From positions 14,597 to 78,596 of the IMG/VR virus record IMGVR_UViG_3300009160_000036: DNA of 64,000 nt; one strand, written 5' to 3'. Positions 32,963 through 34,024 of the stretch are shown here, one piece after another. Origin of the DNA: a virus. The notes below the pieces were generated by a model, which saw only the letters and a list, made by a program, of their open reading frames with translations, was not told where the DNA came from and made no database searches. Each line of letters starts with the position of its first letter. Positions within the stretch are counted from its first letter, which is position 1. The translations under genes were made by a program, and so were the position numbers.

Positions 32963-33139
32963 AGTCACGCTACTCGATTGGTCGAGTTTGCCTCCGCTGA
33001 ATGTCGAAACAAACCGTGAAAGGTTGCAACCTAACACGCAGAGTTAGACACCTGTATCCTGTTAAACGGGATTTAACTGTGAGGCACTTCAGGGGATACC
33101 CTGTCGCAAGTTGCAGGTTCAAGTCCTGCCGAGACTGCC
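32963..33139 (+). ncRNA. tRNA-like element A with a giant anticodon-loop insertion
   Basis: Acceptor AGTCACG/CGAGACT (6/7); D-arm ACTC-GATTGGTC-GAGT; stem TGCCTC/GAGGCA enclosing ~85 nt; T-arm GCAGG-TTCAAGT-CCTGC. Confidence 0.65.
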
Positions 33140-33145
33140 CTTTAT

Positions 33146-33275
33146 GGACAAGATACTCAATGGTCGAGTTATCTGACCTAGTAACGCTATCGTGGCGCGA
33201 ACGGAAAGGCAAGAGAAGCCCCCACGAAGGGCAACTCCGTGAAAGCTGCGGGTTCAACTCCCGCCTTGTCCACCA
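33146..33275 (+). ncRNA. tRNA-like element B (130 nt, encoded CCA)
   Basis: Acceptor GGACAAG/CTTGTCC (7/7) followed by A-CCA; D-arm ACTC-AATGGTC-GAGT; T-arm GCGGG-TTCAACT-CCCGC; ~78-nt multi-helix core instead of an anticodon arm. Confidence 0.72.
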
Positions 33276-33765
33276 ATTTCAACGTCAGCGCAATACCGCG
33301 TGTAGTCGCCTCCTGCTATCAACAGGGTCAAGGCAAGGGAGCCCTACCAAGCTCCGGTCCCGGAAACGGACCGCATCACACGGCAGAGCCACCCGCTAAG
33401 GGGTGGAGTGTTCTTGCACCGAAGATTGCCCACCTCTTTCGTGGGACGGTCGGAATGACGGGCAACAGGCGTGGGGTGCCGAAAGGTCCACAACTCTGAC
33501 ACGGAGCTCCCGGATAGAAACCGCAATAAGCCGCGGGGGAGACAAGGGAGTGCTGTCGGTTGCCGAATACTTTATCTTGGGCCACGAGGACGCTCATGGC
33601 GGTCATACGATGGTGGCGTCTGGGTCATCGACCTAGAACAGGCCCGCCTCAACGAAGGACTTTCGTTTCGACCCTTCCGTTCGTATGGCTGGGGTGGGGA
33701 TGCAAATCGGAATGGCCGTCGAAAGCCTCCCCGTGCTGCTCCCCCTGCCCCTCACTTTCTTTATG

Positions 33766-33905
33766 ACAGGTGTAGCATCCAAGTGGAGATGACCACTTGG
33801 GGTCGAAGCAATTCGATTAACCCAGAAATGCGGAACGCTGGCGAAGCGACAGGAAGGCGGTTAAACGCCTCTCTGGAGATGTGGGTGCAAATCCCACCAC
33901 CTATC
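33766..33905 (+). ncRNA. tRNA-like element C
   Basis: Acceptor ACAGGTG/CACCTAT (6/7); D-like arm CATC...GATG; T-arm GTGGG-TGCAAAT-CCCAC; oversized core. Confidence 0.5.
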
Positions 33906-33912
33906 TCATTTA

Positions 33913-34024
33913 CGCTGGAGCAGGTGCTGTCCTTGGAAGCCGCCTCGATTGGCGGTGGGGTAAGCTTAACAGCTTGCTTCTCCTGAAAAGACTCGTGGAC
34001 GCCGGTTCGAGTCCGACCCAGCGA
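33913..34024 (+). ncRNA. tRNA-like element D
   Basis: CGCTGG/CCAGCG acceptor-like stem; T-loop CGG-TTCGAGT-CCG. Confidence 0.45.

Follow-up and report, generated by a model that had tools for sequence, protein, structure and literature searches.

tRNA-framed structured RNAs with replaced decoding parts in a non-coding island of an uncultivated freshwater phage

Stable RNAs that resemble tRNAs have been known in the phages T4 and T5 for about five decades without an assigned function, and mostly they are single orphan genes, for which comparison has been impossible. The T4 representatives, RNAC (species 1 RNA, 139 nt) and RNAD (species 2 RNA, 119 nt), are presumably matured together with the tRNAs. 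They lie in the phage tRNA cluster (AF158101, 70908-71171), where rnaC, rnaD and tRNA-Arg are 1-6 nt apart. In RNAC a canonical T arm (CCGGG-UUCGAAU-CCCGG) precedes a strand paired to a segment further upstream, some 100 nt of other structure lie between the paired parts, and only the T arm gives a sub-threshold Rfam echo; RNAD has no obvious T arm. No function has been assigned to RNAC (PMC3014915, PMC9697503). In T5 (AY543070), RNA1 (144 nt) and RNA2 (125 nt) are annotated as 'tRNA-like stable RNA with unknown functions', and the tRNA region also has RNAI, RNAIII, RNAIV and RNA2H. The T arms of RNA1 (GAAGG-UUCAACU-CCUUC) and RNA2 (GCAGG-UUCGAAU-CCUGU) are each followed by a strand pairing with the 5' end, and the frame of acceptor plus T arm was confirmed for T4 RNAC and for both T5 RNAs (bodies of 125-144 nt).

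Structured domains and tRNAs are also combined in other phage RNAs. GOLLD and ROOL are large structured non-coding RNAs of phages and prophages found near tRNA islands, and tRNAs are sometimes embedded in GOLLD, in its linker (bioRxiv 10.1101/2024.12.08.627333; PMC5737381). Lak megaphages carry oversized tRNA genes with conserved inserts, which are missed by standard bacterial tRNA finders (PMC6784885).

We analysed a window of 64,000 nucleotides, meaning the whole stretch of DNA under study, from an IMG/VR contig of an uncultivated freshwater phage. Between terL and the portal gene lies a 2.45-kb ORF-free island, structured along its whole length, which holds four elements, A to D, all on the + strand (Table 1); its spurious ORFs had no Pfam match and no coding signal in a Pfam/PHROG scan. 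A sequence-only reading had described four elements with acceptor stems and T arms at this place, and its sequence details were all verified, including the D-arm pattern ACTC-xxTGGTC-GAGT common to A and B, the A-CCA end of B, the word CTTTAT directly 5' of A, B and C, and the stem in A that was said to surround ~85 nt (86 nt by our count). That reading treated the kind as new, but T4 RNAC/RNAD and T5 RNA1/RNA2 are older precedents. In each of A to D a terminal acceptor helix and a T arm frame a body of 100-180 nt that lacks a decoding loop, and they are new families of the tRNA-like stable RNA kind known from T4 and T5, which is a descriptive kind and not a homologous family.

Table 1. Features of the island, in window coordinates.
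Feature	Position	Strand	Description
Candidate promoter 1 and leader	32229..32291	+	TCGACA-17 nt-TTGAAT, hairpin 32263-32282, boxA-like TGTTCTTTCA 32282-32291; read from sequence
CTTTAT spacer word, six copies	32694, 32774, 32957, 33140, 33570, 33759	+	often CCA-CTTTAT
Unit E1	32700..32773	+	74-nt cloverleaf; 7-bp acceptor GTCGACG/CGTCGAC, then U-CCA
Element A	32963..33139	+	unit with tRNA frame; coordinates re-read from sequence
A acceptor	32963-32969 / 33130-33136	+	AGTCACG / CGAGACT, one A.A mismatch
A D arm	32972-32987	+	ACTC-GATTGGTC-GAGT
A anticodon-type stem	32989-32994 / 33081-33086	+	5-6 bp, TGCCTC / GAGGCA, 86 nt enclosed
A core palindrome	33022-33031	+	GGTTGCAACC
A core hairpin	33056-33072	+	AUCCUG-UUAAA-CGGGAU
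A variable-arm hairpin	33090-33103	+	long; CAGGG-GATA-CCCTG (GAUA loop)
A T arm	33113-33129	+	GCAGG-TTCAAGT-CCTGC
Element B	33146..33275	+	7-bp acceptor GGACAAG / CTTGTCC, then encoded A-CCA (33265-33275)
B D and T arms	in 33146..33275	+	D arm ACTC-AATGGTC-GAGT; T arm GCGGG-TTCAACT-CCCGC
B core	33184-33198 and 33218-33232	+	~75 nt, two hairpins (positions given)
Element C	33766..33905	+	acceptor ACAGGTG / CACCTAT, one C.A mismatch
C long-range D stem	33773-33778 and in 33826-33833	+	UAGCAU, of which GCAU can pair with AUGC around a two-hairpin insert
C T arm	in 33766..33905	+	GTGGG-TGCAAAT-CCCAC, no CCA; further hairpins between D-loop insert and T arm
Element D	33913..34024	+	6-bp acceptor CGCTGG / CCAGCG, no CCA
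D D and T arms	in 33913..34024	+	mini D arm AGC-AGGU-GCU; T arm GCCGG-TTCGAGT-CCGAC, one C.A mismatch
Second non-coding unit	34039..34585	+	promoter-like TTGACA-17 nt-CATAAC, 34039-34067; boxA-like TGTTCTTTCA, 34076-34085
Body of second unit	within 34039..34585	+	~470 nt structured RNA
Intrinsic terminator of second unit	34553-34581	+	directly upstream of gpW-like and portal genes

The T arm with its paired strands and the sub-threshold Rfam echo of T4 RNAC recur in A to D, and the tight packing of the T4 genes resembles the 6-9 nt gaps between units here; past the generic T arm there is no sequence similarity. In T4 eight tRNAs accompany two such RNAs, whereas this island has at least five tRNA-shaped units plus several other structured RNAs and no canonical tRNA. 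T5 resembles the island and its relatives in that tRNAs, tRNA-like stable RNAs, other stable RNAs and internal promoters are mixed, but the sequences are not similar, some 20 real tRNAs lie among the T5 RNAs, and covariation support is available here for A to D only.

In each of the four elements the terminal acceptor helix is stacked on the T arm. When the 64-kb window was searched for a T arm combined with a 7-bp acceptor, A, B and C were the sole matches and the - strand had none; these three matches compare with a mean of 0.002 over 500 shuffles of the island, and in the relatives the rate was 0.83 per kb within the island vs 0.019 per kb outside it. The frames are not due to chance. Measured against the canonical frame (7-bp acceptor, 5-bp T stem, UUCRANY loop), A, B and C passed the scan, although the T loop of C is UGCAAAU, with a G at the usual U55 position, and the acceptors of A and C contain a mismatch; D has an acceptor of just 6 bp and one T-stem mismatch. 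The GG of the tRNA elbow is kept in the D loop of A, B and D. CCA is encoded by B and E1 and absent from A, C and D, the 3' tail of A being GCC.

None of the four elements has a 5-bp anticodon stem with a 7-nt U33 loop. The sequence-only reading had seen no normal 7-nt anticodon loop, which holds for A, B and C, but not so clearly for D, where a third hairpin, read by eye, has the 7-nt loop CCUGAAA. It had also placed the inserts in the anticodon and variable region; for A, B and D the core does lie at the anticodon position, but C has a large insert in the D loop (GCAU/AUGC) as well, and there it forms the core. In A an 86-nt multi-helix core takes the place of the anticodon loop. The B core has no closing stem, and its two 7-nt hairpin loops, with UCGUG and CACGA, are invariant and complementary over 5 nt, so these loops may form a kissing interaction. 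C has other hairpins at the anticodon position. In D a central stem, GUCC/GGAC, closes a junction of two or three hairpins according to the model.

As had been anticipated, tRNA scanners missed the elements: ARAGORN reported 0 tRNAs in the window and, in tmRNA mode at default settings, nothing, and Rfam at gathering score reported 0 families (cut-offs of 29 bits for the canonical tRNA model RF00005 and 47 bits for the tmRNA model RF00023). At E <= 10 the island gave only weak T-arm echoes in Rfam and no intron, ribozyme, GOLLD or ROOL. The sole echo of B was to the 3' end of tmRNA (T arm, acceptor and CCA), at 17.5 bits vs the cut-off of 47, and tmRNA was rejected, B having A3-U70 where G3.U70 is required. 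No tmRNA or intron-containing tRNA model matched above cut-off in default ARAGORN or in Rfam; such a match is what the sequence-only reading had named as refuting its proposal. Elsewhere on the contig the Rfam tRNA model recovered three tRNAs at 56-62 bits; the canonical tRNAs of this phage occupy contig positions 1-338, some 46 kb away from the island, and comprise Met, Arg, Gln and a partial Thr-like gene.

Comparison of homologues, which the same reading had recommended, revealed compensatory changes in the frames and in several core helices. For A (13 distinct homologues), 97.7% of cells were paired, against 31-45% in slid controls, with both sides changed in 19 of 34 pairs, and cells were scored unpaired where MAFFT misplaced a gap in the D loop of two relatives (L015 and L049). 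The A core has the invariant blocks TTGCAA, CTGTA and TTTAACTG, and a self-complementary 10-mer is maintained through paired changes in two lineages (GGTTGCAACC, GTTTGCAAAC, TGTTGCAACG). Six distinct B homologues were 96.9% paired, with both sides altered in 9/32 pairs. The 11 distinct C homologues range from 143 to 226 nt; their frame alone (acceptor, long-range D stem and T stem) was 93.2% paired, with 7/16 pairs altered on both sides, cells being scored unpaired where MAFFT misaligned the AUGC strand of the window. The D stem of C changes from GCGU/ACGC to GCAU/AUGC in relative L041 and, by eye, in the window too.

For D, RNAalifold on 11 homologues recovered the acceptor, mini D arm, central stem, hairpins 1 and 2 and T arm, and did not predict hairpin 3. 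Compensatory changes were found in 11/36 pairs, chiefly in hairpin 2, and relatives have a T stem, GGAGG/CCTCC, without the mismatch. Across the families, core conservation is on par with frame conservation, and compensatory changes occur in frames and several core helices alike. The invariant blocks in the A and B cores argue that the cores are not decaying filler.

A fifth tRNA-shaped unit, E1, was found beyond the four first listed. It has a UGCG tetraloop in place of the anticodon loop and an A-rich loop in place of the T loop, its MFE is -36 kcal/mol (z = -5.0), and eight homologues bear compensatory changes at 11 of its 20 predicted pairs.

The same island is present in about 25 related lake-phage contigs, in which units are present, absent or reordered, being gained, lost and moved independently of one another, and the families persist among phages with terL identity of just 67-82%. 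Some relatives have Rfam-confirmed tRNAs within the island, one of them behind a leader of the same type; 14 related loci gave only real tRNAs, and no GOLLD or ROOL, with Rfam at gathering score. Scans of IMG/VR with core motifs showed A and B motifs confined to this clade; four other B-motif matches were rejected as chance occurrences in coding DNA. A blastn search with the island against 50,697 phage records found no match. A terL search against one genome per prokaryote species yielded no prophage copy; the sole match, a fragment with 26% identity in a Phycisphaerae MAG, is uninformative on the host. Among 64 phage ORFs compared with Pfam and PHROG there was no RNA enzyme, reverse transcriptase, Ro60, CCA-adding enzyme or recognisable partner protein.

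The island contains two candidate promoters and one clear terminator. The region 32229..32291 is a candidate leader of a first non-coding transcription unit, its promoter read from sequence, and L006, read by eye, has a like order of promoter, hairpin and boxA; blastn aligned 32247-32350 to several relatives. In the whole window TGTTCTTTCA has just two exact copies, and both lie inside the island. A promoter scan listed neither of the two by-eye candidates. Every island copy of CTTTAT abuts the 5' side of a structured unit (six on the + strand in 32694-33764 vs 35 across the whole window on both strands), and in relatives the leader of tRNA-framed units is (C)ACTTTAY or CTTAC, including that of one Rfam-confirmed tRNA in L006. 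An archaeal TATA box was rejected for CTTTAT because the word abuts the predicted mature 5' end. A phage attachment site was likewise rejected, both acceptor strands being present in every unit; no integrase family was seen among the Pfam/PHROG matches returned for window ORFs.

Lake metatranscriptome contigs from separate studies, identical to the window, map to the island (10/11 pieces of runs X1-X3), and contigs from lake-water RNA libraries span 34087-34463. These are assembled contigs from runs picked for holding island words, in which DNA carry-over is possible; uncovered parts say nothing, and depths (e.g. 161.9 at 34087-34254 in run X4) do not rank expression. The contigs run across unit boundaries, so unprocessed forms, or DNA, exist. 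One contig jumps from 33173 to 33239 within B, a gap flagged 'between: not known'; a relative whose core has diverged, for example L006 or L051, is compatible with it, and the contig does not separate that reading from a true omission.

We consider it probable that A to D and E1 are non-decoding, tRNA-derived scaffold RNAs, excised by host tRNA-processing enzymes, with the core as the working part. The tRNA-framed scaffolds with a replaced decoding part, as the sequence-only reading had proposed, are real, conserved and marked by compensatory changes; their enzymatic excision is deduced from spacers and leader, the tight 6-9 nt spacing and the conserved YUUAY leader fitting the action of tRNA-processing enzymes. 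Transcription from sigma-70-type promoters with hairpin-plus-boxA leaders would yield polycistronic precursors in which these units and other structured RNAs are tightly packed. Host RNase P would cut at the YUUAY leader, and host tRNA-maturation enzymes would trim the 3' end or add CCA. The tRNA frame may then give stability, while the family-specific folded core would do the work, probably through contact with a partner from host or phage; cleavage by RNase P, 3' processing, stability and partner are all inferred.

Other roles suggested for the elements fared less well. An anticodon-nuclease decoy does not fit A, B and C, which present no anticodon loop. YrlA, which acts with Ro60 (Rsr), resembles A to D in joining a tRNA-like module (acceptor-like stem, D and T arms) to a non-tRNA helix. 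YrlA has its ends in the Ro-binding stem and its acceptor-like arm closed, whereas A to D end at the acceptor, with CCA on some units. No conserved Ro-binding motif was seen, the GUCGAA of the second C hairpin not being kept in relatives, and TROVE/Ro60 (PF05731) had 0 matches in the 78.6-kb record, which is about 79% complete, so that this absence is not absolute; a Y-RNA/YrlA-like role was thus not borne out. Working tRNAs, whether the inserts are introns removed by another route or the expanded molecules themselves decode, are quite improbable. Six of the 11 D relatives have the loop CUUGAAA on a 4-5 bp stem, resembling the anticodon loop of tRNA-Ser(UGA), and in several relatives ARAGORN types part of D as 'tRNA-Ser(tga)', or in L004/L005 as 'tRNA-Phe(gaa)', where the Rfam tRNA model stays below cut-off; but position 33 is C in 5/11 D sequences, that of the window among them. 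With the threshold lowered (-ps80), ARAGORN weakly reads A, B and C as intron-containing tRNAs, amid noise that includes the other strand, but the intron-allowed run (-i0,200) at default threshold found 0 genes, Rfam showed no intron or ribozyme family, insert sites vary by family and the loops are invariant across relatives. Lak megaphages do have tRNAs with 'enigmatic introns' (PMC6784885), but Lak genes yield a typed tRNA after insert removal, whereas removal leaves no U33-type 7-nt loop in A, B or C, whose inserts are multi-helix domains with covariation support. The contig omitting 33173-33239 in B, which an excised intron could explain, equally fits a divergent-core relative.

The frame rather than the core might be what acts, the RNAs being top-half tRNA mimics that serve as decoys or sponges for host factors reading the acceptor, the T-arm elbow or CCA, for example tRNA-directed defence nucleases like the tail-cleaving Cas12a3, or tRNA-modifying or tRNA-charging enzymes, while bulky cores bar ribosome entry. 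The one feature common to the five otherwise unrelated families is an acceptor helix closing a cloverleaf-type frame (with a canonical T arm in four, the T-side arm of E1 being non-canonical), B and E1 encode CCA, and tRNA-targeting immunity that includes tRNA-tail cleavage is documented (PMC12851939). A pure decoy, however, would have no need of cores that bear invariant loops and equal or exceed the frames in conservation; CCA is not encoded in A, C or D, and no host or defence system is known for the phage, and we give this explanation a low probability. A larger RNA assembly, with the tRNA-like parts left uncut as components of long ornate RNAs or of complexes made of RNA alone, seems more doubtful again. 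The 2.45 kb are structured throughout with two candidate promoters and one clear terminator, RNA-library contigs span unit boundaries, the self-complementary 10-mer of A, kept by paired changes, could mediate dimerisation, and GOLLD and ROOL likewise occur near phage tRNA islands (bioRxiv 10.1101/2024.12.08.627333; PMC5737381). Yet no GOLLD/ROOL match appeared even at E <= 10, the domains here lie inside tRNA frames, the reverse of GOLLD, in units of 74-180 nt rather than 580-800 nt, every unit is closed by its own terminal helix, and independent gain, loss and reordering better suit autonomous units than one fixed architecture. Functionless, decaying or rearranged tRNA pseudogenes would account for the acceptor or T-stem mismatches in A, C and D of the window and for canonical tRNAs retained elsewhere on the contig, but they are very hard to reconcile with families that persist at 67-82% terL identity with many compensatory changes and invariant core loops, and with island sequence in RNA libraries.

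If the preferred reading of non-decoding scaffolds is extended, the island could be an exchangeable kit of RNA effectors, natural 'tRNA-scaffolded aptamers' that host tRNA enzymes excise and stabilise, whose cores each capture a different host factor (say a defence nuclease, an enzyme directed at tRNA or part of the ribosome), the units being swapped among phages like accessory protein genes. We regard this as speculative and rather unlikely; if true, it would provide a function for the T4 RNAC / T5 RNA1 class, unexplained for 50 years. In this phage clade at least five such families stand side by side, each with 6-13 diverged homologues and clear compensatory changes, so that secondary structure can be modelled with some confidence, as can candidate tertiary contacts like the kissing loops of B. 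Unit gain, loss and reordering among relatives suggest independent accessory units under selection, and the clade is therefore well suited as a first object for solving structures and pulling down partners.

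The source record is a linear IMG/VR virus contig of 78.6 kb with an estimated completeness of 79%. Between its large terminase and portal genes lies an island of 2.45 kb without a credible ORF, and none of the ORFs that could be drawn inside it matched Pfam. The island contains four tRNA-framed RNA elements (A, B, C and D) and two further structured units (E1 and E2). The sequence details previously read for A-D were all found in the window: CTTTAT stands immediately 5' of A, B and C; the D arm ACUC-N7/8-GAGU is common to A and B and retains the GG typical of D loops; and B ends in A-CCA. 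In all four elements the T arm directly continues the terminal helix. The canonical tRNA cluster of this phage is outside the window and physically apart from the island, and its Thr-like gene is truncated at the contig end, leaving only the 3' part.

Coordinates of the island and associated features (window positions unless stated)
Feature	Position	Details
gpA-type large terminase gene	30310-32157	one flank of the island
Island	32158-34613	no credible ORF
Candidate promoter 1	32229-32257	TCGACA-17-TTGAAT; read by eye, absent from promoter-scan output
E1	32700-32773	74-nt cloverleaf; 7-bp acceptor followed by U-CCA; UGCG tetraloop at the anticodon position; A-rich loop replacing the T loop
E2	32780-32956	177-nt structured unit closed by GCCGC/GCGGC, then ACC and CTTTAT
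A	32963-33139 (+)	family units in relatives 152-221 nt
B	33146-33275 (+)	family units in relatives 125-130 nt, always with ACCA
C	33766-33905 (+)	family units in relatives 139-222 nt
D	33913-34024 (+)	family units in relatives ~113 nt
Candidate promoter 2	34039-34067	TTGACA-17-CATAAC; read by eye, absent from promoter-scan output
Second structured non-coding unit	34087-34585	~470-500 nt; own promoter-like site and strong intrinsic terminator
Intrinsic terminator	34553-34581	ends the island
Small gene	34614-34862	other flank of the island
Lambda-family portal gene	34862-36601	follows the small gene; then S49 head protease
Canonical tRNA cluster	1-338 of the full contig	14 kb upstream of the window start; Met-CAU, Arg-UCU and Gln-UUG (56-62 bits), 3' end of a Thr-like gene

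ARAGORN made no tRNA call in the window and Rfam gave no match at the gathering score; the only Rfam echo at E <= 10 was that of the last 47 nt of B to the tmRNA 3' end (17.5 bits, cut-off 47). A scan for the frame itself required a 5-bp stem capped by a UKCRANN loop and, directly after it, seven nucleotides pairing with a segment 66-260 nt upstream. In the entire 64 kb it matched A, B and C alone, with no match on the minus strand. D was missed solely through a single C.A mismatch within the T stem. The three matches in the island compare with a mean of 0.002 in 500 shuffles of the island.

Terminases 67-82% identical to that of the window were found in 19 IMG/VR contigs and in several others from metagenomes, and every related contig that reached the next large gene had a terminase-portal non-coding gap of ~1-3 kb, mostly 2-3 kb. 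In these relatives, frame-scan matches occurred at 0.83 per kb within the island versus 0.019 per kb elsewhere. Comparison by blastn showed that the island units recur as discrete blocks whose presence and order vary among the contigs; for instance, the order is A then E2 in relative L004, and E2 then A in the window and L012. Relatives also carry unit families missing from the window, such as the one represented in L003 by a unit of 145 nt that carries ACCA. Some have Rfam-confirmed tRNAs inside the island (52-68 bits), namely Thr and Trp in L018, Glu in L014 and Phe-like genes in L006 and L009. The latter, typed as Phe(AAA) (L006 8445-8518 and L009 8452-8525; 57.7 bits), have the anticodon loop UGAAAAU, with G at position 33.

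Covariation among homologues, one of the checks proposed by the sequence-only reading, revealed compensatory changes in families A, B, C and D. The family A model (13 distinct sequences) comprises acceptor, D, anticodon-type, variable-arm and T stems plus two core hairpins; 97.7% of its cells were paired, compared with 31-45% in slid controls, and 19 of the 34 pairs had changed on both sides. Family B (n = 6) was 96.9% paired, with both-sided changes in 9/32 pairs. Its two core hairpins have unvarying loops (UCGUG and CACGA) that are 5-nt complements of each other, which points to a likely but still putative contact between the loops. For family C (n = 11) the count was limited to the frame, which was 93.2% paired with both-sided changes in 7/16 pairs, and includes a long-range GCRU/AYGC stem at the D-stem position enclosing 50-110 nt. 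In family D (n = 11, 90% identical) RNAalifold, unaided, gave an acceptor, a mini D arm, a branched central stem and a T arm, the compensatory changes falling mainly within one hairpin. E1 is kept in eight relatives, with compensatory changes in 11/20 pairs.

We consider that A-D, together with E1, are probably tRNA-derived scaffold RNAs, in which the conserved core would be the working part. The acceptor/T-arm stack and the elbow are what RNase P and the 3'-end and CCA enzymes recognise, so the frame could mark the RNAs for these enzymes; it may also confer stability. The cores contain long invariant runs, indicating selection as strong as on the frames; that the elements are pseudogenes is very improbable. 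Frames acting as decoys for tRNA-directed host factors are an unlikely explanation, and modules of a larger RNA assembly a somewhat less likely one. The recognisable proteome of the phage offered no pointer to a core-binding partner, and the contig has no gene for TROVE/Ro60 or a CCA-adding enzyme, nor any other recognisable RNA enzyme.

Working or spliced tRNAs appear improbable. ARAGORN with introns allowed found no genes at its default threshold; at 80% of threshold A, B and C came out as genes with introns, amid spurious opposite-strand calls. Intron-containing tRNAs were rejected for these three, given that no intron or ribozyme model matched, that the insert positions differ among families and that removal would leave no U33-type loop. 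The hairpin loop of D is CYUGAAA, and in 6/11 members it is CUUGAAA, resembling the tRNA-Ser(UGA) loop; C at position 33 in the window and four other members argues against decoding. At the D position, L008 (9608-9692) carries an 85-nt class-II-like tRNA gene with the loop CUUGUGC, untypable by ARAGORN, suggesting that D descended from such a gene. Membership tests ruled out tmRNA, Y RNA, GOLLD and ROOL. The earlier observation is confirmed and extended, and its interpretation is supported in part.

A-D belong to a known but unexplained kind of phage RNA. The T4 stable RNAs RNAC (139 nt) and RNAD (119 nt) lie 1-6 nt apart beside tRNA-Arg, and their roles are still given as unknown in reviews (PMC3014915; PMC9697503). 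RNAC finishes with a textbook T arm and then a strand whose pairing partner lies upstream. In the T5 record, the annotation 'tRNA-like stable RNA with unknown functions' is given to RNA1 (144 nt) and RNA2 (125 nt); both have an acceptor and T-arm frame, and their neighbours include tRNAs, internal promoters and four further stable RNAs. Since A-D have no sequence in common with the T4 and T5 RNAs beyond the T arm, they count as new families within a long-known kind that is defined descriptively. The array is notable for its unusually strong comparative support and for uniting several families.

The word TGTTCTTTCA, which we take to be boxA-like from the E. coli boxA word, follows each candidate promoter (32229-32291 and 34039-34085), with exact copies nowhere else in the window, and a hairpin precedes the first copy. 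These putative leaders resemble the boxB-boxA antitermination leaders of rRNA operons. At 33389-33420, a hairpin plus AGTGTTCTTGCACC forms a third copy that is weaker. Rfam gave no family for the second structured unit except a weak terminator-type match (sbrA, 23.8 bits); positions 34087-34463 were covered by RNA-library contigs from three lake studies.

Parts of the island were found in 16 lake or freshwater metatranscriptome runs, and contigs from four of these were compared with the window. In three runs (X1-X3), 10/11 contig pieces mapped to the island, most of them identical to the window. This fits abundant island transcripts, though as weak evidence, since these are contigs from runs chosen by island words and DNA carry-over is possible. 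In the fourth (X4), a contig of depth 6.9 matched B on both sides and skipped 65 nt (33173-33239); it probably comes from a relative with a divergent core, and could conceivably be a shortened form of B.

Two other regions were observed. E2, kept in seven relatives, has a GAAA-capped hairpin at the would-be T-arm place. The block 33405-33575, which is not tRNA-shaped and ends at a CTTTAT spacer, is among the best conserved of the island, being 91-97% identical in L002, L003, L006 and L007 and 69-85% identical in several other relatives.
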